In this document: positions 1,294 through 44,084 of the stretch, piece by piece
How positions within the stretch are numbered: position 1 is the first letter of the stretch
Layout of the letters: each line of letters starts with the position of its first letter
The notes under the pieces: model-generated
Told to the model about the DNA's origin: nothing
Databases searched by the model: none
What the model saw: only the letters and a program-made list of their open reading frames with translations
Translations under genes and position numbers: made by a program
Origin: a virus
Lineage: Duplodnaviria; Caudoviricetes
IMG/VR virus record: IMGVR_UViG_3300005095_000053
Coordinates: 1-45,080 of that record
Direction: 5' to 3' (one strand)
Length of the DNA stretch: 45,080 nt

Positions 1294-1350
1294 AGTGGTT
1301 CTATCTTCTTATTAATACTTCTATTTTTCTTCTTCTTATTTTTCATCTTT

Positions 1351-1368
1351 TAGTATAATTTTTTAAAA
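1351..1368 (+). promoter_or_regulatory. Putative late promoter -10 box (copy 1)
   Basis: TAGTATAATTTTTTAAAA, 17/18 identical to 4064-4081; both lie just upstream of virion-module genes. Confidence 0.5.
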
Positions 1369-1380
1369 AAAAGGTTTACA

Positions 1381-2022
1381 ATGGCAAATATTGTTGAGAG
1401 TGATAAAAATATTATAGCATCAAAAGTTGTATCTGATCTTGGTATTAACATGGAACCAAATGAATTAATACACATCTCTCAACAATCTGGTGTTAATGAT
1501 TTAAAAAAAATAGGTAAATATATTATGTATGCAGAATCAAGATTAGTAAATGGTATGTCAAGATATGATGCTTTTAAACATGTTTTTCCAGAAAGATGTG
1601 TAGTATCTGATAAATCAGAAATAGGAACATTTAAAACAAATAAACCAGTTGGTTCTGAATTAAGTAAAAGCTCTATAGAAGTAAAAGCAAAAAGACTAGA
1701 GAATACAAAATTATATAAAAGTATAGTTGCTTATTTAACAACATCGTTGTATGTATTATATGCAGCTGATAGAATAAAAGTAATGGATTTAATGTTAGAT
1801 AAAATATTTGATCCAAAGACAAAAGAAGTTCATAGAATTGAGTATGTAAAAACATTTCTAAATGAAACAAAGAAACCAGAAGAAAATGGAATAGATATAA
1901 ATATAAATGTTGAAAATAATAACTTTATACAAATAGAACAAAAATTAGATTTAATAGCCAATAAATTATCTGGATTAGATGCAAGTTCTATAATAAATAT
2001 TATTGGAAATAAAAATGGCTAG
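1381..2022 (+). CDS. Putative terminase small subunit (N4 gp69-like)
   Basis: Upstream of TerL; Y..Y..SRL..GMSRYDAF..VFPER resembles N4-like gp69; C-terminal ININ tail typical of TerS. Confidence 0.6.
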   Translation: MANIVESDKNIIASKVVSDLGINMEPNELIHISQQSGVNDLKKIGKYIMYAESRLVNGMSRYDAFKHVFPERCVVSDKSEIGTFKTNKPVGSELSKSSIEVKAKRLENTKLYKSIVAYLTTSLYVLYAADRIKVMDLMLDKIFDPKTKEVHRIEYVKTFLNETKKPEENGIDININVENNNFIQIEQKLDLIANKLSGLDASSIINIIGNKNG

Positions 2023-2569
2023 TTTTGACAAAGCATTTGAAAAATTAAAAAAACTTGAATTTAAAAATTGTTCTAATGTTTTACATAAAAACAAGACAGA
2101 AAACTATTATACATTTGCTGGTGTCTATCAAAAGTATCATACTAATCTGAATATTTGGTCAATGGTGGTTCTATATAAAAACATTGGACTAGAATTAGAA
2201 GATATTTCAAAGATATTGTATTGTAATAAAGAAATCTGGAAAGAAGTAAAAGAAGTATATAAAAAAGAATACTGGGATAAAATAAAAGGTGATTACATAA
2301 AAAATCAACATATAGCTGATGAAATATTTATATTTGCCGTAAATTCTGGTGTAGAGACAGCAGTAAAAACAGCTCAAAAAATAGTTGGAGTTGTTCCAGA
2401 TGGTATTGTTGGTCCAAAAACATTAAGAGCATTAAATTCATATAATAGTTCATTGTTTGATCATGAATATGATAGCATGGAAATAAATTTTTATAAAAGG
2501 CTTGTAAATAAAATAAAAAAATTTAAAATATATCTAACTGGTTGGATAAATAGGGCAAAGGCAGTATAA
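2015..2569 (+). CDS. Endolysin, glycosyl hydrolase 108-like with peptidoglycan-binding domain
   Basis: MASFDKAF...TFAGVY...YKKEYWD...FIFAVNSG...DGIVGPKT...GWINRA; ATG 2015 overlaps the TerS stop. Confidence 0.85.
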   Translation: MASFDKAFEKLKKLEFKNCSNVLHKNKTENYYTFAGVYQKYHTNLNIWSMVVLYKNIGLELEDISKILYCNKEIWKEVKEVYKKEYWDKIKGDYIKNQHIADEIFIFAVNSGVETAVKTAQKIVGVVPDGIVGPKTLRALNSYNSSLFDHEYDSMEINFYKRLVNKIKKFKIYLTGWINRAKAV

Positions 2570-4071
2570 TGATAATAAAAAGAGAAAGATATGACAAACC
2601 ATATTATCCAAAACATAAAGAAACAATAAAACATTTTTTATGGTTTGATTCATTTTTTGAAGAGGAAAATAAACCAGCACAAGCGCATTTTCAATTAGTT
2701 GATCATATTTTATCAAAAAGAAAAAGAAAAGTAATAATGGCACATAGAGGTTTAGCAAAATCTACAAAAATGATTCATTTAATACTTGAATGGTTATATC
2801 TTGGATATAAGCCAAATTTTGGTGATTTTGAATATATACTTATTATTCAAGATACAGTATCAATGGCAGCAGCAACAATAGAAACAATAGCTGGAATGAT
2901 AGAAGATTCAAAATTAAATAATGTATTGGAAATTAGAAAAAAAACACTTGGTGATGATCCAACATTATATATCTTTAATAAAAACAAAAATAAAACTTTT
3001 TATATAAAAGGTCGTGGTTCTGGTCAAAGTATGAGAGGAACAAAGATAATGAACAAAAGACCAAATATAATGATATTTGACGATATTGAAAACGAAGAAA
3101 AACATGACACAAAAAATTCAAGAGATAAACTCAAAAGGTGGTTCTATTCAGTTGCATTGCCAGCAACAAATCCAAATAGAGAAGAATTTATTTTTATAGG
3201 AACTCCTATACATGAAGATGCATTATTAATGGATTTAATAAAAAATGATAAATGGGAAGCAATAGTATTGCCAGTTGCTGAAGAATTTCCTCCAGAAAAC
3301 TGGGATTGGAATAAACTAATAACATCATGGAGTGATAGATTCACTCCAGAATATGTTAGAGATAAATTTGAAGAGTACAAAAATGATGGGCAAGAAAAAT
3401 TGTTTTATCAGGAATATATGCTAGAAGTTACACCAAAAGACGATTTACTATTTAACATAGACAAGATAAATTATTATGACTATAATGAATTTAAAAGTAA
3501 TTTTAGATCTTTAACATATTATATATCAGTTGATTTAGCTGTTAGCGAAAAAGAATACGCTGATTACACAGCAATTAGCGTTATTGGAGTAGATGAAAAC
3601 AATAACTGGTTTTTAGTTGATGGATTTTTTGGTAGAGTTAAACCAGATGAAACAATTGATAAAATATTTATGTTTGTAAAAAAATGGAAGCCATATTCTG
3701 TTGTACTTGAAAAAGTTGCATTTCAATTATCAATGAAAACATTTATTCAGAATGAGATGGTGAAGAGAGGAATATTCTTTAGTATAGAAATGGTGAATAG
3801 AACAAAGAGCAAATTGTCTGTGATAAAGGGACTTCAACCGATAATTGAACTTGGAAAATTCTGGATACCAAACAATTACATAAAAGATTTTATAAATGAA
3901 TTAATACATGAAATGAGTTCTATAACAAATAATAGTATTTTATCAAAACATGATGATCTAATAGATAGTATAGCACAATTAACACTTATTGATATGGTCA
4001 ATGTAGAGCCAGTTATTGAGTATGATGATGATTTCATTGACATAGATTACAAAAATCCATATATAGTATAA
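2569..4071 (+). CDS. terL: Terminase large subunit
   Basis: Walker A-like AHRGLAKST, Walker B MIFDDIE, FIGTP motif, nuclease SVDLA...DYTAI and HDDLIDS. Confidence 0.95.
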   Translation: MIIKRERYDKPYYPKHKETIKHFLWFDSFFEEENKPAQAHFQLVDHILSKRKRKVIMAHRGLAKSTKMIHLILEWLYLGYKPNFGDFEYILIIQDTVSMAAATIETIAGMIEDSKLNNVLEIRKKTLGDDPTLYIFNKNKNKTFYIKGRGSGQSMRGTKIMNKRPNIMIFDDIENEEKHDTKNSRDKLKRWFYSVALPATNPNREEFIFIGTPIHEDALLMDLIKNDKWEAIVLPVAEEFPPENWDWNKLITSWSDRFTPEYVRDKFEEYKNDGQEKLFYQEYMLEVTPKDDLLFNIDKINYYDYNEFKSNFRSLTYYISVDLAVSEKEYADYTAISVIGVDENNNWFLVDGFFGRVKPDETIDKIFMFVKKWKPYSVVLEKVAFQLSMKTFIQNEMVKRGIFFSIEMVNRTKSKLSVIKGLQPIIELGKFWIPNNYIKDFINELIHEMSSITNNSILSKHDDLIDSIAQLTLIDMVNVEPVIEYDDDFIDIDYKNPYIV

Positions 4072-4081
4072 TTTTCTAAAA
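4064..4081 (+). promoter_or_regulatory. Putative late promoter -10 box (copy 2)
   Basis: TAGTATAATTTTCTAAAA overlapping the terL stop. Confidence 0.45.
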
Positions 4082-4100
4082 TAGATATTGGAGAACCACC

Positions 4101-4838
4101 ATGGACATTAGTAAATACAGAATATATGTAAAGGAATTTTCATTAACAGATGATGAACTTATTCAGGTTATAAAAGATGTCTTGTCTGATATAGCGATAT
4201 CTACACATTTTTTTAAAAAAGCATTTGGTTTTTCTGTTGAAAAAAATATTAGAGAATATGACTTTTATTCATTATTCAAATTAAGTGAATCATTTTCATA
4301 TGATATTGATACTATCTATTTTGGTGGTGACAATTCAATAATTAATAAGTTAATATCACTTAATGGTAATAACACAAACAATAGTCAATTATTTACTGGT
4401 TCATTCAATAAAAATATTGAATATGAAAATGAGCTAATAGATATTAATGACATTATTAAAATAAATAACAATTCAACAAATAAAGAAAATAAAATTATTG
4501 ATGACAGTAAATTGCACTATTGTATTGTGTCTGTTTTTGACAGATTTGAACATATTAATGACTACAAGTATTTATATAAACCAGAAATAAAAGAAAACGA
4601 TTACTTTATATGTATTGTAAGTATAATTCCAGATATTAAACTAATTGACTTATTTGAAAAAGATATAAGAAATTGTCTAATATCTGGAATTAAATACATG
4701 TTAAGCACAAATTTTCTGAACATGGATGATATAAATACAACAAACATGTTGTCAAACATATATGAAAATGAAAAGAGAAAATTAATGAATCGTGTTAATT
4801 TCTATCAAACAAAAATGATTAGGAGATCATGGCTATAA
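4101..4838 (+). CDS. Putative virion adaptor/head-tail protein
   Basis: 245 aa directly after TerL, the position of N4 gp67-like proteins; GGAG RBS. Confidence 0.45.
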   Translation: MDISKYRIYVKEFSLTDDELIQVIKDVLSDIAISTHFFKKAFGFSVEKNIREYDFYSLFKLSESFSYDIDTIYFGGDNSIINKLISLNGNNTNNSQLFTGSFNKNIEYENELIDINDIIKINNNSTNKENKIIDDSKLHYCIVSVFDRFEHINDYKYLYKPEIKENDYFICIVSIIPDIKLIDLFEKDIRNCLISGIKYMLSTNFLNMDDINTTNMLSNIYENEKRKLMNRVNFYQTKMIRRSWL

Positions 4839-4847
4839 GGAAATACT

Positions 4848-6986
4848 ATGATTGACTTAAACAAGATCTATGACATAATTGATCGTTATATAGTAACAGC
4901 TCTCAAAAATAGCATATTTATTGCAAATAATGAAAAAAATATTATTTATTCAAAGAAAGATAACAGTGATGAATCAATAAATTATTACAAATATGACGAT
5001 AGTTATTACTACAATGAACAAGAACAAGATAACAGTAGTGATGAACAATACTGCGATAATCAACAAGATCAACAATCTAGCATCGGTGGTTCTACAATTG
5101 ATTGTGATACCATCTTCAACGGGATAAATATTTCTTCAAGAGATGTATTTATTGATGGTTTTACAATAGAGTATGATCCGCCAGAAAAAATAATAAAAGA
5201 TCAAGTATATACATATGATGTAATAGTAAATGTTACACACAATGATACTGGATGTACAAAGACATTCACATTCAAAGAAACAACATATCCAGATAATACA
5301 ACTACCGATAAATATGGAAGAGTAATTATTCCATATAACAATATTGAACCAGTTACATGTATTGATGAAGAAGTATTAGAGTATGCAATAAACAATAATA
5401 TTGTTTTTGTTGCACCAAATGATAATACAGCTGAAAAAACAATTGTCGAAATTTTTAAAGTTGTTCTTGGAAGAAATTATATTGATTCTGATGCATTAGA
5501 GCATTATTCAAAGATGTTTTTAAATGGTGTTAGTGTAGATGACATCAGAAAACAAGTTGCTTTAGATGCACAAGCATTGTACATAAAATTACCAAAGACA
5601 GCGTATAGAAGTAGAAAATATCTTGGAGAAATAGGTTATGGAGATTATGATACAAATAATAGAGTTGTTGATGATATATGTTTGTTAGATGAAAAAGATG
5701 AATGTTATTATGAAATAGTTATTAGAAAAAAAGATGTTTTTGTAAAACCAAATATTTCTGATAGAATAGATGTAATGATTAATAAAGCATACAATGATGT
5801 ATTGAACAGAACAAATATAGACAATAATGGGATGAAATATTGGTATTCAGAAGTACAAAAAAATAATTATGAACAATATGATCTAAATGTAAAAATAGCA
5901 GAATCAGCAATTTCTATTCTTGGTTCTGGAATATGTTCAAAAAGTGTATATAGTGCATATATTTACTTAAATCCAGTTGATGCAAATAATAGAGAATTTT
6001 ATAAAATTAATGATGTAGTAAATAATGACAAAAATACAGAAGAAGATAATGAATGTATAGAATATGTATTGTCAACAGGATTACCTAGTAAATATTGGTT
6101 TGTTATTCCAAAAGATGATTTAGAGATTGAAATATCAAAAGCATACAAAGATGTTCTAAATAGAAACTATGTTGATTCAAATGGTATGAATTTCTTTTAT
6201 GAATGGGCATCATTAAACAATCCTACATATTATCAATTATGTTTGTACATAGCACATATAGCAGCAGATTCTGATATTGCATGTAATAAAACAAAAGAAA
6301 GAGCAAGACAATTTATTCAATCAAATATTTTTGATCTATTTGGTAATGGGAGTATTATATCTTTACATCAATTTAATGACAATCTGTTAGATTATGGTGG
6401 TTTGTATAATGGACAAGCCGTAGATACTATATATTATTCTGATGATTCTGTTAATGGTAAATCATTAGCCTTGAGTGGTTCTGGTAATGTAAGAATTGAT
6501 CTCTCTGGTAAGAATTTTCCATCATTAAGGAATAATGATTTTTCTATATCAATATGGATAAAGGTTAATCAAACATGTATAGATAACGATTGTACAATGT
6601 GTATTGTAAGTTTTAGAAAAAGTAGTGAAAATAAAAGAATGTTTGAATTATGGTATAAAAACAAATCAATAGTTTATAAGTATCTCGATGGTAGCAATGA
6701 CATTTTGAGAATAGAAGTAGAAAATATTGTAACAGAATCAAGCTGGTTGCATATTGCTATTACAACAAATTGGTCTACAAATGAAAGTAAAATTTACATT
6801 AATAATAATCTTGTAAACACATCAACAAATGATATATCTAATTGTAGCATGGATATTGATTCAATATATGTTGGTGCATTTTATGATGGAGCATATAGAT
6901 TTAAAGGAAATATAGATCAATTTAGAATTTATAAAGATGTATTGACAGAACAAGAAATTGATTTCATATACAGAAATAAAGCATAA
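4848..6986 (+). CDS. Putative receptor-binding/tail appendage protein 1 (three DUF4214-like repeats, C-terminal LamG/ConA-like domain)
   Basis: Repeats VVLGRNYIDSDAL, DVLNRTNIDNNGMKYW, DVLNRNYVDSNGMNFF; C-terminal FSISIWIK...WLHIAIT...IYINN...FKGNIDQFRIY. Confidence 0.7.
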   Translation: MIDLNKIYDIIDRYIVTALKNSIFIANNEKNIIYSKKDNSDESINYYKYDDSYYYNEQEQDNSSDEQYCDNQQDQQSSIGGSTIDCDTIFNGINISSRDVFIDGFTIEYDPPEKIIKDQVYTYDVIVNVTHNDTGCTKTFTFKETTYPDNTTTDKYGRVIIPYNNIEPVTCIDEEVLEYAINNNIVFVAPNDNTAEKTIVEIFKVVLGRNYIDSDALEHYSKMFLNGVSVDDIRKQVALDAQALYIKLPKTAYRSRKYLGEIGYGDYDTNNRVVDDICLLDEKDECYYEIVIRKKDVFVKPNISDRIDVMINKAYNDVLNRTNIDNNGMKYWYSEVQKNNYEQYDLNVKIAESAISILGSGICSKSVYSAYIYLNPVDANNREFYKINDVVNNDKNTEEDNECIEYVLSTGLPSKYWFVIPKDDLEIEISKAYKDVLNRNYVDSNGMNFFYEWASLNNPTYYQLCLYIAHIAADSDIACNKTKERARQFIQSNIFDLFGNGSIISLHQFNDNLLDYGGLYNGQAVDTIYYSDDSVNGKSLALSGSGNVRIDLSGKNFPSLRNNDFSISIWIKVNQTCIDNDCTMCIVSFRKSSENKRMFELWYKNKSIVYKYLDGSNDILRIEVENIVTESSWLHIAITTNWSTNESKIYINNNLVNTSTNDISNCSMDIDSIYVGAFYDGAYRFKGNIDQFRIYKDVLTEQEIDFIYRNKA

Positions 6987-6995
6987 GGAGTATAT

Positions 6996-9176
6996 ATGAA
7001 CACTACAAATGATATTTTCAAATTCATAAAAGAATATGTTGACATAAAAATCCAAAAATTACTTGAGGATGGTTCAATTAATGAAACAATATTAAATATA
7101 TATTCTGATTATATTAATGTAAATTCTACTGATAGTACTAATGAAGTAAATATTGCTGATATGTTTTCTTCTAATGATAATGAAATTCCTGATGTATATG
7201 TCAATACGCAAGATGATGAAAGTAATGATCAATCTCAAACTAATGAATCTGATACGGAAAATACTTCAAGTGGTTCTCAATTATCACAATGTGATATAGT
7301 GTTTAAAGATATCAATATCACATCAAGAATTCCATCGATTGATGGATTTGAAATAATATATGTTCCAGAAGAACCAATTGTAAAAAATGAACCATACTCA
7401 TATAATGTTACGGCAACATTAACACATATAGAAACAGGTTGTACAAAAACATTTATGTTTAAAGAAACTACATACCCAGAAGATGCAGAGGTTGATATGT
7501 ATGGAAGGCAAATAGTGCATATTGCATACATAGAACCACAGACTTGTGTTGATAATGAACTTATCGAATATGCACAAAATAATACAATTGTTTTTGTAAA
7601 ACCTATAGATGGAGATGATATAGATTCACAAGTTGTAAATTTATATAGAGAAGTCCTTGATCGAACGATTATTGATAGTGAAGGATTTAATTATGCAGCA
7701 AATCTGATAAAAGAAAAAGGATATGATGAAGCGTGTAAACAAATTGCTTTAGATGCACAAAGCTATAAACTTGTATTACCAAAAGCGTCTTATAATGCAA
7801 GATGTTATCTTGGCTCTATCGGTTATGGTAATTATGATACTGAAGGAAGAGAACCTATTAAGATATGTGATCTATTACAAAATGAATTAGGGTATATAGA
7901 TGAACAATGTGTTAATAAAATAATAAAAGAAAATGAAATCTTTGTAAATAGACTTGGTGACAATATTGATAATGCAATATGGACAGCGTATAAAAATGCA
8001 CTTGGAAGAAATTATGTTGATAATACTGGTGCCAAATATTGGAGAAATAAAATAATGACAGGATACATAGATGTTGAAGATATAGAACAATCAATTGCTA
8101 GTAATGCTATTTCTATAGCAAACGATAGAACATGTATATATGCATCCTTAAAAGCACTAAAGTATATGAGGAATACTGATCCTTATGGTAGAGAATACTA
8201 TGATATAATAGATGTGCTTGATGCGTATAACAATGATGAGTTTTCGCAAGTTGACAAAGAGTGTTTTGATTATGTTATAAATGAAGGCGATATTATAAAA
8301 GAATGGTTTGTAAAACCTAATCCTAATTATGAAGAAGACAAAGAAATTGTTTCTGCATATAAATCAGTTCTTGGTAGAAATTATATTGATAGTAAAGGGT
8401 TCAATTACTGGTTCTCTGAATATAGAACAAAAGATTGGGAATTTTATGATCTAGAAAAAGCTATTGCAAATAGTGCCATTAATTTTACATCAGACAAATG
8501 TAAAACAGCAAGAGAAAATGCTATTAACTGGAATATTGCTTATGGAGATGTAAGTCCATATAGCGCAGACCCATTTGGAGATGGCAGTTGTGTGGCTTTT
8601 TATCCATTAGATGGAAATGCTAATGATTATACTGGCAATGGACATAATGGAGAATGGGTGGGAACAGAACAATATGATACAGGAGCTATAAAACAAGCCG
8701 CAAAATTTGACGGTAGTAGTTATATAAAATTACCAAGCCCTTCATCTCTTGGAATTAGTAGATATAATTTTTGTTTTGCCTTATGTTTTAAAGGAACTGG
8801 TAATATTGGATTAGGAAATGTTTGGAGTGACTCTGGGAGTTTTTTATATATTACAGATAGTAAGTTGGAAATAAAATGTGAGAATTATGTTCGTTTTACT
8901 TATCCATTTGAAAATCAACAAGACAAATTTTATTTTGTTGTATGGCAAAACAATGGAATATATCTAAATGGTAAACAAATTACAAGTAATTTGCATAAGC
9001 CATTTTGTTCAGAAAGCAATCAAATTGAAATAGGTGGAGTACAAGAATGTTATCTTTACAAACAATATGGTGGATATTTTAACGGTTTAATTGATAATGT
9101 TTACATATTCAATAGAGCATTAACAGATGAAGAGATAAAAATTTTATCATCAATTGAAATAGGAGCGTCAAAATGA
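6996..9176 (+). CDS. Putative receptor-binding/tail appendage protein 2, paralog of 4848-6986
   Basis: Shared TGCTKTF.FKETTYP...D.YGR block, three LxR..ID..G..YW-type repeats, LamG-like C-terminus (YPLDGNAND...FNGLIDNVYIFNRAL). Confidence 0.7.
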   Translation: MNTTNDIFKFIKEYVDIKIQKLLEDGSINETILNIYSDYINVNSTDSTNEVNIADMFSSNDNEIPDVYVNTQDDESNDQSQTNESDTENTSSGSQLSQCDIVFKDINITSRIPSIDGFEIIYVPEEPIVKNEPYSYNVTATLTHIETGCTKTFMFKETTYPEDAEVDMYGRQIVHIAYIEPQTCVDNELIEYAQNNTIVFVKPIDGDDIDSQVVNLYREVLDRTIIDSEGFNYAANLIKEKGYDEACKQIALDAQSYKLVLPKASYNARCYLGSIGYGNYDTEGREPIKICDLLQNELGYIDEQCVNKIIKENEIFVNRLGDNIDNAIWTAYKNALGRNYVDNTGAKYWRNKIMTGYIDVEDIEQSIASNAISIANDRTCIYASLKALKYMRNTDPYGREYYDIIDVLDAYNNDEFSQVDKECFDYVINEGDIIKEWFVKPNPNYEEDKEIVSAYKSVLGRNYIDSKGFNYWFSEYRTKDWEFYDLEKAIANSAINFTSDKCKTARENAINWNIAYGDVSPYSADPFGDGSCVAFYPLDGNANDYTGNGHNGEWVGTEQYDTGAIKQAAKFDGSSYIKLPSPSSLGISRYNFCFALCFKGTGNIGLGNVWSDSGSFLYITDSKLEIKCENYVRFTYPFENQQDKFYFVVWQNNGIYLNGKQITSNLHKPFCSESNQIEIGGVQECYLYKQYGGYFNGLIDNVYIFNRALTDEEIKILSSIEIGASK

Positions 9177-9772
9177 TATTTAGAGTATTAGAAGACAAAA
9201 AGCTAAACAAAATAATTACACCAAGTTCATTAACAGAAGACCAATTTATAGGTCTTCAAAAATCAAAGGTTTATAAATTCATTAAAGTAGATGAAAGTGA
9301 TTTACCAAAGCAATATGAAGATGATAAAAGAAAATTTAATGAAATTTTTTATATGCTTGATGAAAATGACAATATTGTCATTGATTATGAAAGAACAGAA
9401 CAGGCATGGTTGGATGAAAGAAAAAAAGAATTGACACATATGATATATACAAATTATCCACAAAGTAAACAAAATAGTGATATTGCTGATAAAATGTATT
9501 ATGAAACTTTATTAAGATCTCTTGAAGATGAAAATCATAACAAGATTTATCCAACATTAGACAATATGATATCAACAATGGTGGTTCAATTCTATCATGG
9601 AAAAACGATAGATGAATTATTAAATTCAATTAATGAAAAAGATAAAGAATCTTTTGAACAATTATTAAAAGTTGGTATAAGGGTAAAATGGATTCAAGAT
9701 TGTAAAAATGAACTGAAACAAGCATTAAAAGAAAAAAGAGAACCACAATATCCATTGTATCCTTTTAATTAA
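9173..9772 (+). CDS. Hypothetical protein, possible tail-fibre assembly chaperone
   Basis: ATGA overlap with the preceding gene; IYTNYPQSKQ and W-containing helical C-terminus; call rests mainly on position. Confidence 0.4.
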   Translation: MIFRVLEDKKLNKIITPSSLTEDQFIGLQKSKVYKFIKVDESDLPKQYEDDKRKFNEIFYMLDENDNIVIDYERTEQAWLDERKKELTHMIYTNYPQSKQNSDIADKMYYETLLRSLEDENHNKIYPTLDNMISTMVVQFYHGKTIDELLNSINEKDKESFEQLLKVGIRVKWIQDCKNELKQALKEKREPQYPLYPFN

Positions 9773-9788
9773 GCGCAAAGGAGATTTA

Positions 9789-10166: not shown

Positions 10167-10167
10167 T

Positions 10168-10428: not shown

Positions 10429-10457
10429 AAATAATTTGTATATGGTAAGGAGATATA

Positions 10458-10919: not shown

Positions 10920-10930
10920 GGAGATATATA

Positions 10931-11290: not shown

Positions 11291-11292
11291 TA

Positions 11293-13394: not shown

Positions 13395-13402
13395 GAGAGA
13401 AA

Positions 13403-32027: not shown

Positions 32028-32044
32028 AATATGCTCCTTATTGT

Positions 32045-32272: not shown

Positions 32273-32285
32273 AGTGTTCCTCCTT

Positions 32286-34990: not shown

Positions 34991-35007
34991 TTTTTGATCT
35001 CCTATTT

Positions 35008-35766: not shown

Positions 35767-35786
35767 TTTTTCCTCCTTGTTTATTT

Positions 35787-36079
35787 TTATTTTTTTATTT
35801 CTCCTAAAAGATTTAATCTAGCATTATTTGTTAAATAATAAATTCTTTTTCCTTTTGGTTTAAATAAAAATCTAATTTTTTCTATTAAAAAATCCAGTGC
35901 ATCACAAAAACATTTTTCATCAAAACAATGCAAATCAAATAAGTCATCTCTTATATCATTTGAGAGAATGTAAAATATATTTTTTTTTCATCAAAATAAA
36001 CAATTTTAAAAAATACAGATGATATTGTATAAATACAAGTTTCTATATTTGAATAATTTTTTGATAGATATTCTCTCAT
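35787..36079 (-). pseudogene. About 97-aa ORF split by a frameshift in an A9 run
   Basis: Frame 0 from ATG 36079 stops at 35951; the -1 frame after the A run (35980-35988) is open to TAA at 35787. Confidence 0.5.
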
Positions 36080-36080
36080 C

Positions 36081-36509
36081 TCATCTATCAAATTCACTAT
36101 TTTCATTTTTAAACTCCTTTTTATTGTAATACATTAAATTATTTTTATAATCGCTTATTGATTTATTAAAAAATAATGGATTTATTGTAATGATAGAACC
36201 ACTTCTTGAAATAAAACCTATTTCTTTTAATTCTTTCATATATTTTTTTATTAATGATTCTGAAACATTTATTTTCTTTGCAAGATATTTATTTGTTGCT
36301 CTTAATTGATTGTTTTTTCTTGCATGTGTAAGTATATATTTTATCAGTCTACCTTTTGAGCCTAACAAATTGAATAATGAATAAAATTCATTAAATACAA
36401 TGTTAAATTTTCTTTTTATTTTTTTCTTTTCTGTCAAGTGTGGATCATAAACCAAATCAATTGTCTTTGTCTCATTATTTTTGTTTACAAGCTCTAGTTT
36501 TCTATACAT
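36081..36509 (-). CDS. RepL-like winged-HTH protein
   Basis: AGGAG RBS before ATG 36509; TNKYLAKKINVSESLIKKYMKELKEIGFISR....INP. Confidence 0.65.
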   Translation of the reverse strand: MYRKLELVNKNNETKTIDLVYDPHLTEKKKIKRKFNIVFNEFYSLFNLLGSKGRLIKYILTHARKNNQLRATNKYLAKKINVSESLIKKYMKELKEIGFISRSGSIITINPLFFNKSISDYKNNLMYYNKKEFKNENSEFDR

Positions 36510-36533
36510 AAAATACTCCTTTACTATAAAAAA

Positions 36534-36598
36534 GTACAAAAATATTGTACCAAAAAAAAGTACAAAAATATTGTACTCTTGGTACAATATTTTTGTAC
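36534..36598. promoter_or_regulatory. Three 17-bp quasi-palindromic repeats (operator or iteron-like)
   Basis: GTACAAAAATATTGTAC at 36534-36550 and 36560-36576, inverted copy at 36582-36598. Confidence 0.75.
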
Positions 36599-36754
36599 TT
36601 TTAAAAATAGCTATACTTTCCGAAATCTAGGGAATATAAAGCAATCTGTAAAAATTTTTTCTATATATATAGAAAAAAATAAAAAAATTAATTTTTTTTG
36701 TTTTTTTAAAAAAAAGAAAATTACAGAATAAAAGGAGAAAAAAAAATCAACAGA

Positions 36755-37363
36755 TTAAAAATCTGGTATATTATCTGTTGATGGTTCTCTTTGTTGTTTG
36801 TTTTCTTCTTTAAAAACTGGTTTTTTCTCTATTCTATTTTTTAATTTTTCAATACATTCAGTATCTTCTGCACAACATACATCAACTAATTCATATCTTG
36901 TTTTTTCTTCACCATTTTGATTATAGTAAATTCTATCTCTAATACCAAATGCAAATTTTTTGTTAATTACATCTTTTACAGATGGTAGTTTTTTAACTTC
37001 TCCCCATACTTCAACTGCTTTTTCTTCAAAAGTTAATTGATTAACTCTTTTACCTAAACATTTTGCCATCTTGTCTAAAATTACTAATCCACTAAAATAT
37101 CCACCATTTGAATTTTTAACTGATCCATCTGATTTCTTAACCATTCTCTCAACTGCCCAACCTACTAGTCTTAATTCAATATCATTTGGAATTTCTCCAA
37201 TATCTATAATAAAATTTACATATGCTGTTCCATTTTGAGTCTTATCTAAAAATGCATTTCTTACTACACCTAAATAAACTCCAGGAGTTAATTTTTCATA
37301 ACTCCCTTGTTTTTCTTCTTGTTCATCAAGTTCTTGTAAATTTACTTGTTTTAACCAATCCAT
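36755..37363 (-). CDS. Single-stranded DNA-binding protein
   Basis: L.PGVY.G.V...F OB-type start, acidic C-terminal tail ending DNIPDF, near the Sak4-like gene. Confidence 0.65.
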   Translation of the reverse strand: MDWLKQVNLQELDEQEEKQGSYEKLTPGVYLGVVRNAFLDKTQNGTAYVNFIIDIGEIPNDIELRLVGWAVERMVKKSDGSVKNSNGGYFSGLVILDKMAKCLGKRVNQLTFEEKAVEVWGEVKKLPSVKDVINKKFAFGIRDRIYYNQNGEEKTRYELVDVCCAEDTECIEKLKNRIEKKPVFKEENKQQREPSTDNIPDF

Positions 37364-37431
37364 TTTCTACTCCTTTCATGTTTTTTTAATTGTTTTATAA
37401 AAATGTTGTTTGTTTTTTTTTAAATTGTGAA

Positions 37432-37638
37432 TTATTTATATTTTTGATTATTGTTAAATTTATTAGCTATCACTAGCTCTAATTCTGTTGTTAGAAAATC
37501 TTCTTTGTTTGAATTTAAGTAAATTCCATCTTTAACTCCTTTCATTTCAATTTCAATTCTTATTGAATTTATATCTTTACAACATAATCTTTCTCTAATT
37601 AAGTCAAATAATTCTCTTTTTGTAATATGAATTTCCAT
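37432..37638 (-). CDS. Hypothetical protein
   Basis: 68-aa ORF; AGGAG RBS. Confidence 0.6.
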   Translation of the reverse strand: MEIHITKRELFDLIRERLCCKDINSIRIEIEMKGVKDGIYLNSNKEDFLTTELELVIANKFNNNQKYK

Positions 37639-37641
37639 TTT

Positions 37642-37905
37642 TTACTCCTTTTGCATTTTTTCTTGATAATCTTGCAACTCAAACCATGCTTTTATAGCCT
37701 CTTCTTCACTATCAAAAAATCTTGCAACAGCTTTATTTTTTAAAAAACCATAAACTGCAAAAATAGAACCACCACAGGGATGGAAAACAGAGACTAAATT
37801 TTTTTTGTTTTTATATTTATGCTCTATTGTTTTCAGGTGGTTCTTTATATACATTCTTTCTTCATGTGATATATATTCATGAATGTTATTCTCTATTTCC
37901 ATCAT
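37642..37905 (-). CDS. Hypothetical protein
   Basis: 87-aa ORF; GAGGA RBS. Confidence 0.6.
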   Translation of the reverse strand: MMEIENNIHEYISHEERMYIKNHLKTIEHKYKNKKNLVSVFHPCGGSIFAVYGFLKNKAVARFFDSEEEAIKAWFELQDYQEKMQKE

Positions 37906-38251
37906 CTTCCTCTAATTGTTTAATAAATGACATTGTGTATGATAATACAACTGCATCAGTTTCACTATTTTCTTCATTGTACCATTTTTGCAAAATTTCT
38001 AATAATTTTGATCTCAATCTATGTATAAGCAATTCATAGTTACTAGTATATTTAACGCCATACTCTATTAATAGAAATGGCAAATACCAGTGATTATTTT
38101 TTAACATTATTTTTGCAAGTGCAAAATAACTTGCATCTCTTAAAGAACTATATTTGTAATCTTTACCATGTACTAATATTTTTAATTCTTCATCAAACAA
38201 TTTAGACATTTTTTTTATGTCATTATAGTCACTAAATTTCAAGATTTTCAT
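37886..38251 (-). CDS. Hypothetical protein
   Basis: 121-aa ORF; GAGGAG RBS. Confidence 0.6.
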   Translation of the reverse strand: MKILKFSDYNDIKKMSKLFDEELKILVHGKDYKYSSLRDASYFALAKIMLKNNHWYLPFLLIEYGVKYTSNYELLIHRLRSKLLEILQKWYNEENSETDAVVLSYTMSFIKQLEEDDGNRE

Positions 38252-38927
38252 TTTTAACTCCTCTTAATAAATTTATTATTTTTTGCATATCGTAAAGTGC
38301 ATCATTTTCATATATTACTGTTGGAATTCCAAAATCAATTAATCTATTTTTTCCTACAGCATCTTCTGTTGGTTCTGATATAAGAACCCTTTTTCCTTCA
38401 TTATCAATTACAATATGTCCAACAAAATCAAAATAAGATGGAATAGTACTTTTAAATCTATTTGCCTTATACATTGGATGTTTTATTAAATAACCACCAT
38501 CATTAACTTCTTCTTCTAATGCTGTAATAATTATATTTTTATCTATTGCTAAAATGTCTTCTAATCTTTGCCTTGATATAGTATCAAAATCACCCCATAA
38601 TTTCATTGAATCTCTTTTATCAGGATAAACTTTACTTAATGCAACGAATAACATTTCTCCATATCTTGTAAGAGAATCTATTACAATAGTATCATAATCT
38701 TGTTTTTTTACCCATTCTAAAACATCTTTAAATTGTTTTGCATTTGAAATTGGAATAACATCTATATCTTTATTTTTCACTGATGCACTACCTTTTTCTA
38801 AATCAAGAACCACTGCATTTTCAACAGAACCAGCCAAATGTGTTTTTCCAACACCACTTCTACCATATAATAATGCTTTTAAATTTTTTGCGATTAAATC
38901 TTTTGGTTTGATAGGTTTAAAATCCAT
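38232..38927 (-). CDS. Sak4-like AAA ATPase (ssDNA annealing)
   Basis: LLYGRSGVGKT, LDLEKG, TIVIDSLT, FDFVG, GKNR. Confidence 0.85.
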   Translation of the reverse strand: MDFKPIKPKDLIAKNLKALLYGRSGVGKTHLAGSVENAVVLDLEKGSASVKNKDIDVIPISNAKQFKDVLEWVKKQDYDTIVIDSLTRYGEMLFVALSKVYPDKRDSMKLWGDFDTISRQRLEDILAIDKNIIITALEEEVNDGGYLIKHPMYKANRFKSTIPSYFDFVGHIVIDNEGKRVLISEPTEDAVGKNRLIDFGIPTVIYENDALYDMQKIINLLRGVKNENLEI

Positions 38928-38950
38928 TTTATCTCCTTTTCTTTGATTTT

Positions 38951-39217
38951 TTATTTATAAGTTTCATATCTAATAACATCAACTAAACCATACAATAACT
39001 CATCTACACTATATTTACTAAATATTGGAGTTATATCTCCTGAAATTTTTTGTTTTATTGTATAAATATCAACTTCAAATTGAGAACCACTATTGCAAAA
39101 ATGTCTTATACATACATCAATTTTATTTGATGTATAAAACTCTATTGCCTTGAAAAATTCTTTTTCATTTGTTAAAATAACATGCACTCCTATACCAAGT
39201 CTAGTTCTTGTTCTCAT
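38951..39217 (-). CDS. Hypothetical protein
   Basis: 88-aa ORF; AAGGAG RBS. Confidence 0.6.
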   Translation of the reverse strand: MRTRTRLGIGVHVILTNEKEFFKAIEFYTSNKIDVCIRHFCNSGSQFEVDIYTIKQKISGDITPIFSKYSVDELLYGLVDVIRYETYK

Positions 39218-39235
39218 TAGGCTCTCCTTTTTTTT

Positions 39236-39436
39236 TTAGTTTTCTTTATCAAAATAAATTAGAAATATTGCATATAATAAATCATTGAAATTAATTCTAC
39301 AATCATCAGAATTTTCAAGTGCTTCATATATTACATCTTCTACATCTAAATTTAATTCTTTAATTAATAAATCAATTAAATCTATTTTTTCTTTATTAGC
39401 ATTAAAAAATATTTCAATAAAATTGTTTTTATCCAT
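39236..39436 (-). CDS. Small acidic hypothetical protein
   Basis: 66-aa ORF; AGGAG RBS. Confidence 0.6.
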   Translation of the reverse strand: MDKNNFIEIFFNANKEKIDLIDLLIKELNLDVEDVIYEALENSDDCRINFNDLLYAIFLIYFDKEN

Positions 39437-39758
39437 GTGATCTCCTTTTAATTAAATTTATTTCTTTTTTTAATTTTTCATTTTCTTTATATAAATCATT
39501 TGCATATGATAATAGTATTTCAACAACTTCTTTACAATCAAAAATATCACATAAACTAATTTCATATGTTTCTATAACATCACAATCATAATCTTCACTT
39601 TCATTTACATAAAAACTTCTACAATTAACAAGTTCTAATGTAATTAATGGTTCATTGTATCTTATCATTAATGGAACCACATAATCTAAATTATCTATCA
39701 TATCATCTATTGCATCATTATAATCAATTGTTTCAGCTGAATATCTTACCTCTTTCAT
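39429..39758 (-). CDS. Acidic hypothetical protein
   Basis: 109-aa Asp/Glu-rich ORF; AGGAGG RBS. Confidence 0.65.
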   Translation of the reverse strand: MKEVRYSAETIDYNDAIDDMIDNLDYVVPLMIRYNEPLITLELVNCRSFYVNESEDYDCDVIETYEISLCDIFDCKEVVEILLSYANDLYKENEKLKKEINLIKRRSHG

Positions 39759-39780
39759 TTTGTTTCCTCCTTTTTGTAAT

Positions 39781-40275
39781 TTAAATATTTTCTTTAATAA
39801 AAGAAATTAATCCATCTTTTGTATATGTGCTTATTGGCTCTCTATATTGTTCATATAAATCATTATTTATTTTTTTAGCAATCTCATACAATTCTTGTTT
39901 TGACATCATTTCTAGTGGTTTCAACCTAAATATATCTACACCATCATGATGATAATTTTCTACAATTATTTCTTCACTATCTTCTTCAAATGAAATAATT
40001 AATCTATTTGTATCTTTAATGTTTTCTATTACTTCTTCAAGTGACATTATTGTTAAATCATCAATACAATAATTGTTATTCCATTTCTCAACACAACCAC
40101 TTAAAAAACCATCAATATATCCATATTCTGTCATTATATATTCAAAATCTTCCATTGCATCATCAACAAAATATTCACAATCACAATCTTCACCATTATC
40201 TGTGTAGCATTTGTAATAATTATCACTATCAAAATACAATTCTCTTAATTTTTTCTTCATTTTTCTTTTATCCAT
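39781..40275 (-). CDS. Acidic hypothetical protein with HHDG motif
   Basis: 164-aa Asp/Glu-rich ORF; AGGAG RBS. Confidence 0.65.
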   Translation of the reverse strand: MDKRKMKKKLRELYFDSDNYYKCYTDNGEDCDCEYFVDDAMEDFEYIMTEYGYIDGFLSGCVEKWNNNYCIDDLTIMSLEEVIENIKDTNRLIISFEEDSEEIIVENYHHDGVDIFRLKPLEMMSKQELYEIAKKINNDLYEQYREPISTYTKDGLISFIKENI

Positions 40276-40290
40276 TGTTACTCCTTTTAT

Positions 40291-41742
40291 TTAAAATTTG
40301 TATTTTTTAATTGTTTGTTCATAGAACCATTTTGGAAAAGATTTAAAATTTTCAATTCTAGAACCACTATTTACAATGTTTCTTAATCTTGTTTTGTATG
40401 CTTTTATTGTTGATTTTTTCTTATTAAATTTTTCAAGTTTTTCAAGATAAAAATTCATTTCATAAATGATTTTCTCAATAATTGAACCTCTTAAATAATA
40501 ACCTTTTTTTCTTCTATTAACTTCATTTATGATATTTACTATCATTCTGACATCATCAGTATATTCGAATAATATTTTTAATTGTTCTATTGTTGCTGAT
40601 GCTAAACTAATTTGTTTCTCATAAAAAGATAAATTTTTATTTATATCTTTGTATGAAAATGCATAGTTATTATCTTTAATTGTTTTAAATATTGCACTAA
40701 TCATTTTTGAATCTTTTCCATTATCTATTTCTGGTATACCATGAACAAATAAATTATTTGACAAACATATATACTCAAATTCTTTTTTATTTTTTGTTAT
40801 TCTTGAACCACGACCTATCATTTGATAAAAAAGACTTTTTATTTTTGTTGGTCTTAAATCAATTATTCTTTCAATGTTAGGAGCATCAAATCCAGTTGTC
40901 AAACTTGTTACACCAACAAGAACCTTTATTTTTCCATTTTTAAAATCATTAACTAAATTCTCATGGTGGTTCTTTGAATGAAATACATTAACATTTAATA
41001 ACTTTGCAATATCATTTGCCATATCAATATTTGAACAAAAAATTAATGTTTGTCTATTATCTAGTGATTTAAAAAAATTTTTAAATTCATCTTTAAAAAA
41101 TTGTTCTTTATACAATTTTCTTATTGATTCTTGAGAATAATCAAACCCAGATACTTTTAAATCTTCAAAATTCATTTTTTTAATAAAATGTGGAATTACA
41201 TATTTTGCTCTTGCAATATAACCAAGTTCTTCAGCATCTGTGTATTTAATAGGTTCATATATGTTGTTTGATATTAGATTTCCTTTTTGATCAAAAGGCG
41301 TTGCTGTAAAACCTATTAATTTTACTGGTTTTAATTTGTTTATTATTGAAATAAATCTTTCTCCATTTCTTCTTTTGTGTGCCTCATCATACAAAATAAC
41401 AAGATCTTTATTATGCTTAAATTTAATTCTTTCAAGCCTATTATAAAGCGTTTGTTCACTTGCAAGTGTTATACTACCTAGAATGATAGAATCGTTGTCA
41501 GAAACAATTCTAGATATGTTTAACGACATATTTTTAAAGTGCTCTTCAAGTTGATTGATTAATTGTAAAATATCAGATGAAATAAGAACATTGTATTTAT
41601 CTAATATTTCTTTTGCTATTCTTGGCATTAAATATGTTTTACCTAAACCTGTGTATAGTTTTATGATTAGTTCTTTGTCTTTGTCTTTTTTCATGAAATC
41701 ATTTACTTTTTTAATTACATCACTTTGATATTTCCTCAACAT
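40291..41742 (-). CDS. Superfamily 2 (DEAH) helicase
   Basis: LRKYQ, TGLGKT, DEAH, TATP, LTTGFDAP, QMIGRGSR; start moved to MLRKYQ behind an AAAGGA RBS. Confidence 0.9.
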   Translation of the reverse strand: MLRKYQSDVIKKVNDFMKKDKDKELIIKLYTGLGKTYLMPRIAKEILDKYNVLISSDILQLINQLEEHFKNMSLNISRIVSDNDSIILGSITLASEQTLYNRLERIKFKHNKDLVILYDEAHKRRNGERFISIINKLKPVKLIGFTATPFDQKGNLISNNIYEPIKYTDAEELGYIARAKYVIPHFIKKMNFEDLKVSGFDYSQESIRKLYKEQFFKDEFKNFFKSLDNRQTLIFCSNIDMANDIAKLLNVNVFHSKNHHENLVNDFKNGKIKVLVGVTSLTTGFDAPNIERIIDLRPTKIKSLFYQMIGRGSRITKNKKEFEYICLSNNLFVHGIPEIDNGKDSKMISAIFKTIKDNNYAFSYKDINKNLSFYEKQISLASATIEQLKILFEYTDDVRMIVNIINEVNRRKKGYYLRGSIIEKIIYEMNFYLEKLEKFNKKKSTIKAYKTRLRNIVNSGSRIENFKSFPKWFYEQTIKKYKF

Positions 41743-41795
41743 ATTTATCCTTTTCACAACATAAATATTTTTTTTAAATAAAAAATGAAAAAAGA

Positions 41796-42170
41796 TTAAC
41801 AAATTTTTCTTATTATTTTTGGAACAAGTGTTCCATTTTTGTTTACTATTATCCAGTCTCTATAAAGTGCTAAAATTGGTAATCCTAATTCTTCTACTTT
41901 TCTTATAAGATCTTCTAGTTCAACTAAATCACCAACCGATCTTTTTTTTCCATCAATTCTAATTTCTAATTCATCTATTGTTTCTCTGAATACTTGATAA
42001 TCTATAAAATCTTTTTCTTCATTATTTCCTACTGTATAAATTCCTTCCCAAACATGAAATAATGAATTGTATTTAATAAACAAAGCTATGTTTTTTAATA
42101 ACTCTTTTTTTTTTGTATTACCATTAACTTCTATTAACATTTCATCAAAATTCCAAATAAATTTTTTCAT
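41796..42170 (-). CDS. Early hypothetical protein
   Basis: 124-aa ORF; AGGAG RBS. Confidence 0.65.
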   Translation of the reverse strand: MKKFIWNFDEMLIEVNGNTKKKELLKNIALFIKYNSLFHVWEGIYTVGNNEEKDFIDYQVFRETIDELEIRIDGKKRSVGDLVELEDLIRKVEELGLPILALYRDWIIVNKNGTLVPKIIRKIC

Positions 42171-42261
42171 TTTTGTCTCCTTTTTTTAATTTTTTGTCTT
42201 TATTTTGTCTTTAATATTTTGTCTTGATAAAATAAAATTACACAAAAAAGAACAAAAAATT

Positions 42262-42432
42262 TTATTTTGTATATTTTTCTAATAAGTTTCTCAAATAGTC
42301 TAATTCTTCTTGGAGGTCCACCGATATTGCTCCATCTTCTGGAGATGGAACATCTTTTTGAAATAGAAGATCTAACTGATCTTCTATTTCTTTGATTCTT
42401 TTTTTAATTTCTCTAATATTTAAATTTTCCAT
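42262..42432 (-). CDS. 56-aa acidic helical protein missing from the ORF track
   Basis: MENLNIREIKKRIKEIEDQLDLLFQKDVPSPEDGAISVDLQEELDYLRNLLEKYTK; AAAGGA RBS. Confidence 0.65.
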   Translation of the reverse strand: MENLNIREIKKRIKEIEDQLDLLFQKDVPSPEDGAISVDLQEELDYLRNLLEKYTK

Positions 42433-42443
42433 ATCATTTCCTT

Positions 42444-42716
42444 TTACAGATCTAAATGGAAGTATTTTAGGCTTTTATCTTCGATCATATATAAAACATT
42501 TGCATCATCTACATCTAAATCTTTAATAACATCACCAAGTTTTCTATAATCCTCATATCCAGACATTTCGTCTGGATCAAACACACCATATAAATATTCA
42601 CTTAAACCTAATTCAGTATTTTTTCCGAACCACCATCCGCAAAGTCCAACTGTGATGTTTTCCCATTCAGGATAAATTTCTTTAAAATTTCTAAAATTTG
42701 TGCTTTTTATTTCCAT
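42444..42716 (-). CDS. Early acidic hypothetical protein
   Basis: 90-aa ORF; AGGAG RBS. Confidence 0.65.
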   Translation of the reverse strand: MEIKSTNFRNFKEIYPEWENITVGLCGWWFGKNTELGLSEYLYGVFDPDEMSGYEDYRKLGDVIKDLDVDDANVLYMIEDKSLKYFHLDL

Positions 42717-42732
42717 TTGTACTCCTTTTATA

Positions 42733-43146
42733 TTAATTTTGATTTATTTTTTTTAGAATTTCTCTTTGTATGTTTTCTTCTAATTCTTCAAGTAAACAAT
42801 ATTCACCTCTATACATGATGTAACAATCATCTTTCAAACTGAAATAACAGCTTGTCGCTGTTATTCCCATAATATCTGTTTTTTTACATGAAAAATCCTT
42901 TATTTTGTCCATATCAGCTTTACTTATTAAACAAACGCTATCCTCTGAAGAGAGGTAGCATACTTGTATTCTTTTTTCATATTTATTGAAAAAAGGTAAA
43001 TACACGCAAAAAATTGTATTATCATCTTCTATTTCTTCTCTTTTCGGGACATCGCACACTATCTCTGTCCCTTTTTTTAAATCTAATTTTGTAGTTACAA
43101 ACTCTTCTAATTCTTTCTTTGTCTTGATATCATAATCTAAAGTCAT
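42733..43146 (-). CDS. Early hypothetical protein, Cys-rich
   Basis: 137-aa ORF; AAGGA RBS. Confidence 0.65.
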   Translation of the reverse strand: MTLDYDIKTKKELEEFVTTKLDLKKGTEIVCDVPKREEIEDDNTIFCVYLPFFNKYEKRIQVCYLSSEDSVCLISKADMDKIKDFSCKKTDIMGITATSCYFSLKDDCYIMYRGEYCLLEELEENIQREILKKINQN

Positions 43147-43294
43147 TTTTTATCCTTTCTTTTTAATATTTTTTATTATCAATAAAAGAACCACTAAATA
43201 ATATAGATAATATATCATTTGATGGTTCTTTTGTCTATTCTGTCTTTTTTTTGTCTGTATAAAAAGGAGGTTAATAAAAAATTTTAAATAGCTA

Positions 43295-43315
43295 AAAGGG
43301 GATTTATTCCCCTTT
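43295..43315. terminator. Intrinsic terminator-like hairpin
   Basis: AAAGGGGA-TTTAT-TCCCCTTT just downstream of gene 43325-43690. Confidence 0.6.
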
Positions 43316-43324
43316 ATTTATTTT

Positions 43325-43690
43325 TTAAACAAATAATATTTTTCCTAAATGAGAGCAAAGAAGTACTGGTTCTTTACTCTCTTTAATTATTTTATATAAT
43401 TCTAAAGATTGACTATCTAAAAGTTTTTCATCAAATTCATCTTTAAAAACATCATTACATTTATTTACATATATTATTTTTGTTGGATTAAAATCAAATA
43501 TTTTTTTATTTTCTTTATATACTGTAACAAATCCAAAAATTTCATCTACTCTTTTTGCTTGACAACATCCAGCGTTGTAGTCATATACTACAACGCCTCT
43601 TGCCGCTTGTTTTATAGCGGCAAGGATATAACAACTATCTTTTTTCATAATATTTAATTTTTTTCTATAAAAATTTCTACTTTTTCTCAT
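43325..43690 (-). CDS. Early hypothetical protein
   Basis: 121-aa ORF; AGGAG RBS. Confidence 0.65.
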   Translation of the reverse strand: MRKSRNFYRKKLNIMKKDSCYILAAIKQAARGVVVYDYNAGCCQAKRVDEIFGFVTVYKENKKIFDFNPTKIIYVNKCNDVFKDEFDEKLLDSQSLELYKIIKESKEPVLLCSHLGKILFV

Positions 43691-43818
43691 ATTTTCTCCT
43701 TTTTTTGTTTTTTATTTTTTTTTAAACATCTACATCAAAAAACCTAAAAACTACACATAAAAGAACCAATACAGAGCCCATTAGGGCTCTCTACTGGTTT
43801 TTTTAATTTTTTTTGGGG

Positions 43819-43989
43819 TTAAAGGGCTAACGCCCTTTTCCCTCTAATATATAAATTCCATTTATCAAATTTCTCAATAATAATAAAACCATTAAAAAAA
43901 CTAAAAAATCTAATTTCATTAAAATCTAAACAATCACAAAAAATTACAAAATTTTTAATTTTAAATTCTCTTAAAACTCTCATATCCAT
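43819..43989 (-). CDS. 56-aa Phe-rich protein missing from the ORF track
   Basis: MDMRVLREFKIKNFVIFCDCLDFNEIRFFSFFNGFIIIEKFDKWNLYIRGKRALAL; AAGGAGG RBS. Confidence 0.55.
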   Translation of the reverse strand: MDMRVLREFKIKNFVIFCDCLDFNEIRFFSFFNGFIIIEKFDKWNLYIRGKRALAL

Positions 43990-44036
43990 ATTAACCTCCT
44001 TAATAAAAATTTAAATTTAATTTAAAAAAGAACCAA

Positions 44037-44084
44037 AAAAATAATAATACAACCACCATCTATGGTGGTTCTATTATTATTTTT
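44037..44084. repeat. 22-bp-arm inverted repeat with one C.C mismatch
   Basis: AAAAATAATAATA-C-AACCACCA-TCTA-TGGTGGTT-C-TATTATTATTTTT. Confidence 0.85.

Follow-up and report, generated by a model that had tools for sequence, protein, structure and literature searches.

The word GTGGTTC and its reverse complement GAACCAC recur throughout the virus record IMGVR_UViG_3300005095_000053, whose 45,080 bp were analyzed as a whole (hereafter, the window). This record has direct terminal repeats and is 100% complete. The results described below indicated that GTGGTTC is a selected, strand-specific signal on both strands, and that it is the window's own form of a word common to N4-like phages. Its predicted function, which we consider probable, is that of a template recognition site where the gp43 primase of the phage starts new DNA strands. 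A wider proposal also seems somewhat favored, namely that the word forms a two-strand priming grid for gp43 in N4-like phages and their polymerase-less relatives, co-evolves in dialects, switches in place and vanishes where the primase domain degenerates, so that primase specificity and activity could be read from word counts alone.

Excess and Selection of GTGGTTC in the Window

A preliminary description, made from the letters of the window alone, had counted about 58 copies of the word; all 58 coordinates were exact, but a 59th copy (GAACCAC at 1191) had been overlooked. The GC content was 24.9%, close to the quarter judged there by eye, and the one or two copies expected agreed with dinucleotide shuffles (1.13 expected, standard deviation 1.03, maximum 4; 59 reached in 0/100). 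This expectation was too low for genes, where 51 copies were found against 8.8 to 11.8 (codons pooled genome-wide and within each gene, respectively) when the proteins were kept fixed, with a maximum of 19 coding copies in 300 such shuffles. Hence, the excess is 4–6-fold and not 40-fold. The word remained in excess under both codon shuffles and Markov models, being the top-ranking 7-mer of the window under Markov orders 1 and 2, and amino-acid usage was, as had been argued, insufficient to explain it.

A T followed the word in 48 of the 59 copies, giving the extended form GTGGTTCT already recognized in most of them, and the preceding base was mostly G or A. Eight copies were intergenic or on gene edges, in agreement with the earlier remark that the word is also found between genes, and the peptide readings quoted for coding copies were right (RWF at 3138, KWF at 24268, VV at 2165 and 9581, RTT at 10364 and 16624, ENH at 14617). 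The many one-mismatch xTGGTTC variants that had also been noted were near the null in genes (10 observed vs. 9.2 expected with A, 11 vs. 12.7 with T, and 10 vs. 6.4 with C), and 13 one-base neighbors of GTGGTTC were at the null level with proteins fixed. Rare codons, through which the word was said to be often read, concern a minority of the coding copies, since 34/51 sit in the common frames xGT-GGT-TCx or GAA-CCA-Cxx. The claimed lack of strand bias held for the two strands of the window (28 vs. 31 copies) but not relative to genes, where 33 coding copies were sense and 18 antisense.

Synonymous sites in homologous genes, to which the preliminary description had pointed as a check, were retained above the background. 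Third codon positions within sites were kept in 32/37 cases vs. 0.70 elsewhere between the window and its relative G001, and in 200/226 vs. 0.65 between G006 and G007; retention was weaker in other genome pairs (33/47 vs. 0.63 and 52/74 vs. 0.66). Aligned cores were kept between the window and G001 in 15/34 cases. As five of the nine kept orthologous G sites of the window read T at position −1 in G001, the dialect was switched in place. Furthermore, orphan genes were enriched like shared genes in 16/16 genomes.

The arrangement of the copies was also analyzed. The sense/antisense ratio stayed near 1:1 despite a varying null (standard deviation of the log2 ratio, 0.33 vs. 0.81; 23 genomes). When 22 genomes were pooled, same-strand pairs were depleted at short distances (0.50 at <50 bp, 0.71 at 50–100, 0.83–0.89 at 100–400 and ~1 beyond), while opposite-strand pairs were not (1.28 at <50 bp, 1.23 at 50–100, then ~1). 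The coefficient of variation of the gaps was under random on 35/44 strands, compared with 20% for a set of 197 control words. In the window, where the mean same-strand spacing was 1.5–1.6 kb, it reached z values of −1.1 and −1.7, which were not significant on their own. Strand parity and same-strand exclusion correspond to a polar site that acts per single strand, a behavior that other polar signals fit too.

A Word of N4-Like Phages With Several Dialects

In a first survey of loci around gp43 homologues (88 non-redundant of 126 sequences), TGGTTC or a word close to it usually ranked first among the hexamers, the excess being weak or nil at the short loci L050 and L056 (~11 kb). A genome panel was then composed of 46 IMG/VR records picked on length (several partial, e.g., 60 of 74 kb) and named controls. 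Open reading frames were called mechanically and all hexamers were ranked against synonymous-codon shuffles. Genomes were counted as gp43 genomes when their gp43 match exceeded 100 bits (n = 42, with the window and the initial 50 kb of N4 among them), and the family-word list comprised 13 words compiled after inspection of the data; the panel genomes are interrelated.

A family word was among the top three hexamers in 34/42 gp43 genomes, coliphage N4 among them, and at rank 1 in 31. The remaining ones were G073, with a weak excess (65 vs. 34), and seven genomes without the word. None of the 14 gp43-less controls (Javan385, phi12, SV21, Pun_Y3, Rollin, T7, NrS-1, NrS-2, NrS-4, 50 kb of E. coli, G054, G077, G078, and G079) had a family word in the top three, the best rank being 17 (G054). 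Of these controls, Javan385 and phi12 are siphoviruses whose AEP domain is related, and SV21, Pun_Y3, Rollin, G078, and G079 are phages of the N4 capsid family whose replication genes are different. Two incomplete virion-arm fragments, G002 and G049, had a family word at rank 1.

Dialects differed at the −1 base, which was G in the window, G013 and G014, T in most genomes, and C in N4, G016 and G037; TGGTTC occurred 145 times in N4 vs. 42–46 expected, mostly as CTGGTTC. The core itself varied (TGGTTC, TGGCTC as in G026, TGGTAC as in G022, TGGATC as in G011, TGCTAC, GGGTTC, TGGCTT, TGGTTT), and the word-bearing phages spanned 24–55% GC. Thus, the core TGGTTC is shared family-wide, and the word is not private to the window, of which GTGGTTC is the dialect. 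TTAGCT/TTAGTT was considered as a dialect of the word-less genomes and rejected, its 1.3–2-fold excess being present in word-bearing genomes as well; in word-less G053 and G057 it was ~1.7–2-fold. TGGATC was entirely missing from N4 (0 vs. 25; L126, 1–50000) and from G076 (0 vs. 13), which fits GATC avoidance, but is itself the word of G011 and G027. Other over-represented words were GTCTGCC (26 vs. 3) and CCTGAGG (23 vs. 3) in L390, GTCGAT (41 vs. 9) in L348, and TACCGG in L363 and G030.

gp43 as the Predicted Reader of the Word

The genes common to near-complete word-bearing genomes were gp43, gp42, the single-strand DNA-binding protein (SSB), portal, capsid, gp57, and gp67, together with terminase and gp69 bar one 90%-complete record. 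The HU-like, multi-HTH (helix-turn-helix), and RepL-like proteins suggested as readers by the preliminary description cannot be the family-wide reader, because they turned up in only 1, 4, and 2 of 86 sequences, respectively. The resolvase, the SF2 helicase, ThyX, and the Sak4 type of the window were rejected, as they are missing from many word-bearing genomes.

The best named tblastn matches of gp43 were N4-like DNA primases (~26%), and its motif residues are intact (D489 and D491 of the DxD motif, H516, D562, R570, R641, E681). As modeled, gp43 combines an MCM-like ATPase, an AEP primase and a helix bundle in one protein (Table 1). In Foldseek searches, the top matches of the N-terminal model were all MCM subunits (E ~1e-6, TM 0.25–0.30), and the AEP domain matched the S-2L PrimPol AEP (E = 7e-7) and RepB' (E = 4.6e-4), with a structural comparison giving VIA Z 7.8, root-mean-square deviation 3.5 and 135 aligned. 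A PDB sequence search with the gp43 profile gave no match; helical bundles dominated a wide fold search, in which the pRN1 and NrS-1 chains were not among the matches listed.

The loss of the word was accompanied by changes in the primase part of gp43. Y511 (32835–32837, within the AEP domain) was replaced in 7/7 word-less gp43 genomes and was Y in 32/34 word-bearing ones, while N484 and E681 (the latter at 32325–32327, within the PriCT-1 domain) were replaced in 6/7 and kept in 34/34. Three of the seven also lose the catalytic H516, plus T512 and R527. In word-less group A (G056, G063, G071), 3/19 conserved primase-domain columns were altered vs. 0/108 elsewhere (gp43 N-terminus, exonuclease, terminase and virion proteins, the virion genes coming from G071 only); in group B (G053, G057, G048) the figures were 9/19 vs. 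3/107. The group B homologues have lost the catalytic histidine and have an altered helix bundle, and are perhaps a helicase-only form of gp43.

By the mechanism proposed, the helix bundle of gp43 would bind 5'-(G)TGGTTC(T)-3' on a single-stranded template, and the primer would start opposite the nearly invariant T, leaving GGTTC uncopied, by analogy with the pRN1 and NrS-1 primases. The variable −1 base would be the second primer position; the flank profiles of the word held information only from −2 to +1. Sites would be needed on both strands since either strand can be exposed as template, a situation in which equal strand loading is expected, and a second same-strand site within ~400 bases would add little. 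N4 replicates from both ends, which a literature search did not confirm.

Several observations weigh against this assignment. Most comparison genomes were reached via gp43 itself, and the conserved columns were chosen after inspection of the data. Word loss amounts to only three changes on the gp43 N-terminal tree, with one independent pair on well-supported branches (counts based on quick trees), so that the paired loss test cannot reach significance with so few independent events. In G052 (A511) and G074 (H511) the word is strong although Y511 is replaced, and G076 has no word though H516 and E681 are intact. A scan of conserved columns for dialect residues in nine families revealed no residue specific to gp43, and convergence with the −1 G in 12 families was found in 4/674 gp43 columns, at rates similar to those of the others. 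A link between the last gp43 helix and the −1 base, seen by eye, had exceptions. The NrS-1 primase gave no meaningful match to the gp43 profile (best 0.4 bits) and its site TTTGGTTA occurs once in NrS-1, while T7 primase sites are only ~1.5-fold enriched in T7, with other words ranking higher. Finally, the gp43-less G054 has 20 copies of TGGTTCT vs. 6.4 expected in its virion module; outside it there are 3 vs. 1.2, too few to call background. G054, a linear record, is a temperate phage with an integrase, a DnaB-like helicase, Erf, and N4-type virion genes, and gave no gp42, gp43 or SSB match. Because its capsid relatives at 79% identity include the gp43-bearing G076, a module swap that left the word behind as a relic is plausible. 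This chimera (L310, L311) also encodes several methyltransferases, and G077 looks alike.

Alternative Explanations

The polarity of the site would equally suit a private Chi-like signal for the gp42 exonuclease or the gp43 ATPase, which would halt resection or load SSB/Sak4 in recombination-dependent replication; both the strand balance and the spacing along each strand would look alike under it, and gp42 was present in all 16/16 near-complete word-bearing genomes checked. We regard it as unlikely, given that in word-less group A the exonuclease (12/12) and gp43 N-terminal (13/13) conserved columns were kept while the primase domain changed, and that gp42 has a single nuclease domain in its 252 residues. 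A reader among the virion and packaging proteins (terminase, gp69, portal, gp57, gp67 or an ejected protein), acting in packaging or DNA entry, is quite unlikely too, even though their genes are common to word-bearing genomes, TGGTTCT persists in the virion module of G054 and that of G077 has 13 TGGCTC vs. 4.5. Word-less G071, G056, G048, and G057 kept 43/43 conserved columns of terminase and 24/24 of portal (where present), the G054 sites may be the relics mentioned above, and packaging runs in a single direction, whereas the two strands carry the word equally.

That the phage mimics a host signal, such as Chi for AddAB/RecBCD, an uptake sequence or a modification target, is very improbable. 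In its favor, one inverted word pair (18110, −; 18125, +), the only such case in the window, makes the inner stem of a terminator-like hairpin, as in uptake sequences, and GGTGGTTC exceeds expectation in NrS-1 (6 vs. 0.4) and NrS-2 (4 vs. 0.4), so that the host may have influenced the −1 G. GTTC/GAAC is a phosphorothioate core motif. Nevertheless, the same core serves phages of widely differing GC content, coliphage N4 included, and sister phages use differing words, several without a GTTC/GAAC core. TGGTTC was found 16 times vs. 23 expected in 50 kb of E. coli (the host of N4, not the probable host of the window), where the Chi word, used as a control, gave 14 vs. 3.8; in the Nitratiruptor phages NrS-1, NrS-2, and NrS-4 TGGTTC was found 14, 11, and 16 times vs. 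~16. A host Chi with the core TGGTTC was rejected on the E. coli count, and an uptake sequence on both. Inverted pairs of the uptake type were limited to this hairpin in the window and the 1.28-fold pooled figure given above; close opposite-strand pairs were also seen in G001 (3197/3213), G002, and G003. Three G004 stretches and one G039 stretch showed no word excess, a search of plasmids for the HU-like protein gave no match, and no Campylobacter Chi was found in literature titles and abstracts. A codon-pair preference or mutational bias producing the word without any reader is largely refuted and has hardly any probability left. The two common-codon frames and a protein-fixed null ~10 times the dinucleotide one speak for it; against it, copies occur in five of six frame/strand classes and between genes, one-base neighbors are at the null, and same-strand exclusion, strand parity and lineage dialects argue against a codon effect. 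Hence, of the self-marking signal proposed in the preliminary description, the selected signal stood, with a phage primase as its best supported option, while Chi or uptake mimicry and a modification target were left unsupported.

The Phage and Its Other Genes

Searches of the 55 window proteins against PHROGs and Pfam identified an N4-type terminase, portal, capsid, gp57, gp67, gp69, exonuclease, SSB, a Sak4-like protein, and the gp43-type primase. Of the Schitoviridae proteins, gp42, gp43, gp56, gp57, gp59, gp67, gp68, and gp69 are represented. The searches gave no match to an RNA polymerase, DNA polymerase or methyltransferase. vRNAP, RNAP1/2, DNA polymerase, gp24, and gp25 had no match in PHROGs, in Pfam or by clustering with N4. 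The Schitoviridae core comprises 17 conserved proteins including vRNAP, RNAP1/2, and DNA polymerase, according to excerpts of PMC7650795. The window shares with that family gp42, gp43, the Sak4-like protein, SSB, capsid, gp57, portal, gp67, terminase, and gp69, but differs in its size of 45 kb and in having no match to vRNAP, RNAP1/2, DNA polymerase, gp24 or gp25 (same excerpts). It is therefore an N4 relative that fails the Schitoviridae core list. This make-up, with gp43, gp42, and SSB but no matched polymerases, recurs in the 43–48 kb relatives G001, G006, G007, and G029. The polymerase-less phage may employ gp43 as replicase or use the host polymerase.

The best matches of the endolysin were five Nitratiruptor phages (47–49%), and those of ThyX were Campylobacter phages; judging from these, the host is probably a member of the Campylobacterota. 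A 2286-aa protein (20666–27526, +) without a PHROGs or Pfam match lies at the place of the N4 vRNAP, is common to five relatives and is possibly an ejected protein. Two paralogues of 712 and 726 aa (4848–9176, +), both containing DUF4214 repeats and, at the C-terminus, a LamG lectin domain, are likely receptor-binding fibers. Additionally, TACGGC/GCCGTA occurs nine times in the window vs. 0.4–0.6 expected, and GAATTA/TAATTC 106 times vs. 73.

Table 1. Location of the word array, the gp43 domains and associated features in the window.
Feature	Position	Strand	Basis or remark
GTGGTTC array, 59 exact copies	1191..44071	28 +, 31 −	Consensus (R)GTGGTTC(T)
Terminator-like hairpin after the major capsid gene	18097..18145	+	Minimum free energy −24.2 kcal/mol, z −6.9, 0/200 shuffles
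N4 gp43-type primase, 693 aa, proposed word reader	32286..34367	−	phrog_2135, E = 8.6e-63
PriCT-1 helix-bundle domain, gp43 residues 638–691	32295..32456	−	Pfam PF08708, E = 1e-7, above cut-off
AEP primase domain, gp43 residues ~415–595	32583..33125	−	Predicted fold, Foldseek
MCM-like AAA+ ATPase, predicted helicase, gp43 residues ~1–414	33126..34367	−	AlphaFold pLDDT 87
N4 gp42-type PD-(D/E)XK exonuclease, 252 aa, single nuclease domain	35008..35766	−	PHROGs, Pfam; rival reader
N4-type single-strand DNA-binding protein	36755..37363	−	phrog_743

Implications and Comparison With Known Systems

Primase sites as such are of a known kind, the new aspect being a dense two-strand grid with family-wide dialects, of which no precedent was found in literature titles and abstract openings. 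The same search found no published recognition site of N4 gp43, and the excerpts of PMC4889955 and PMC3821669 contained no mention of one. The word supplies exact templates to be assayed (GTGGTTCT, TTGGTTCT, and, for N4 in E. coli, CTGGTTC), and the natural dialects and word-less variants point to residues Y511, N484, and E681 of gp43. If the assignment to gp43 is true, N4-type genomes would be primed internally every ~0.5–1.5 kb per strand, and the need for priming would shape synonymous and even amino-acid choice on both strands across a phage family. Primases with long programmable start words would then be on offer, and recoding of N4-like therapeutic phages might damage their replication.

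Chi, the DNA uptake sequences (DUS/USS), and HIP1 are words of host chromosomes, iterated genome-wide in genes and on both strands. Unlike them, the word of the window tracks a phage gene family across hosts and was not in excess in the E. coli stretch. The T7 gp4 primase recognizes (G/T)(G/T)GTC; these sites are likewise short, non-palindromic template words, and TGGTC resembles TGGTTC, but gp4 is a DnaG-type enzyme. Enrichment in T7 was mild (73 vs. 48.5 sense and 54 vs. 35.6 antisense). L121 and L122 encode stand-alone AEP proteins whose C-terminal domain is of another kind, and GATGAAA/TTTCATC was the top heptamer at both loci.

In the pRN1 primase, a helix-bundle domain reads the template word (excerpts of PMC13469122 and PMC5862659). 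From the same excerpts, ORF904 of pRN1 has, like gp43, a domain of the PriCT-1 family, which in gp43 follows the AEP domain; its site is the three-base GTG on an archaeal plasmid, whereas the window word has 6–8 bases and is selected genome-wide. The primase sites of NrS-1, likewise read by a helix bundle, are TTTGGTTA and GTGG/GTGA, as given in the consulted parts of PMC8718748. GTGGTT occurs 31 times in NrS-1 vs. 12.7 expected (2.4-fold, no dense grid), and 17 and 19 times vs. ~13.5 in its primase-swapped kin NrS-2 and NrS-4. GTGGTTA(CAC)-like copies are clustered just after the NrS-1 primase gene (L211, ~17160–17450), and the octamer AGTGTAAC/GTTACACT, found 11 times vs. 0.5 genome-wide, possibly represents origin iterons. 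The NrS-1 primase-polymerase resembles gp43 in its AEP domain and helix bundle, its host group, its TGG(TT) sites and, as proposed for gp43, its priming 5' of the site, and differs from it in that the helicase lies C-terminal.

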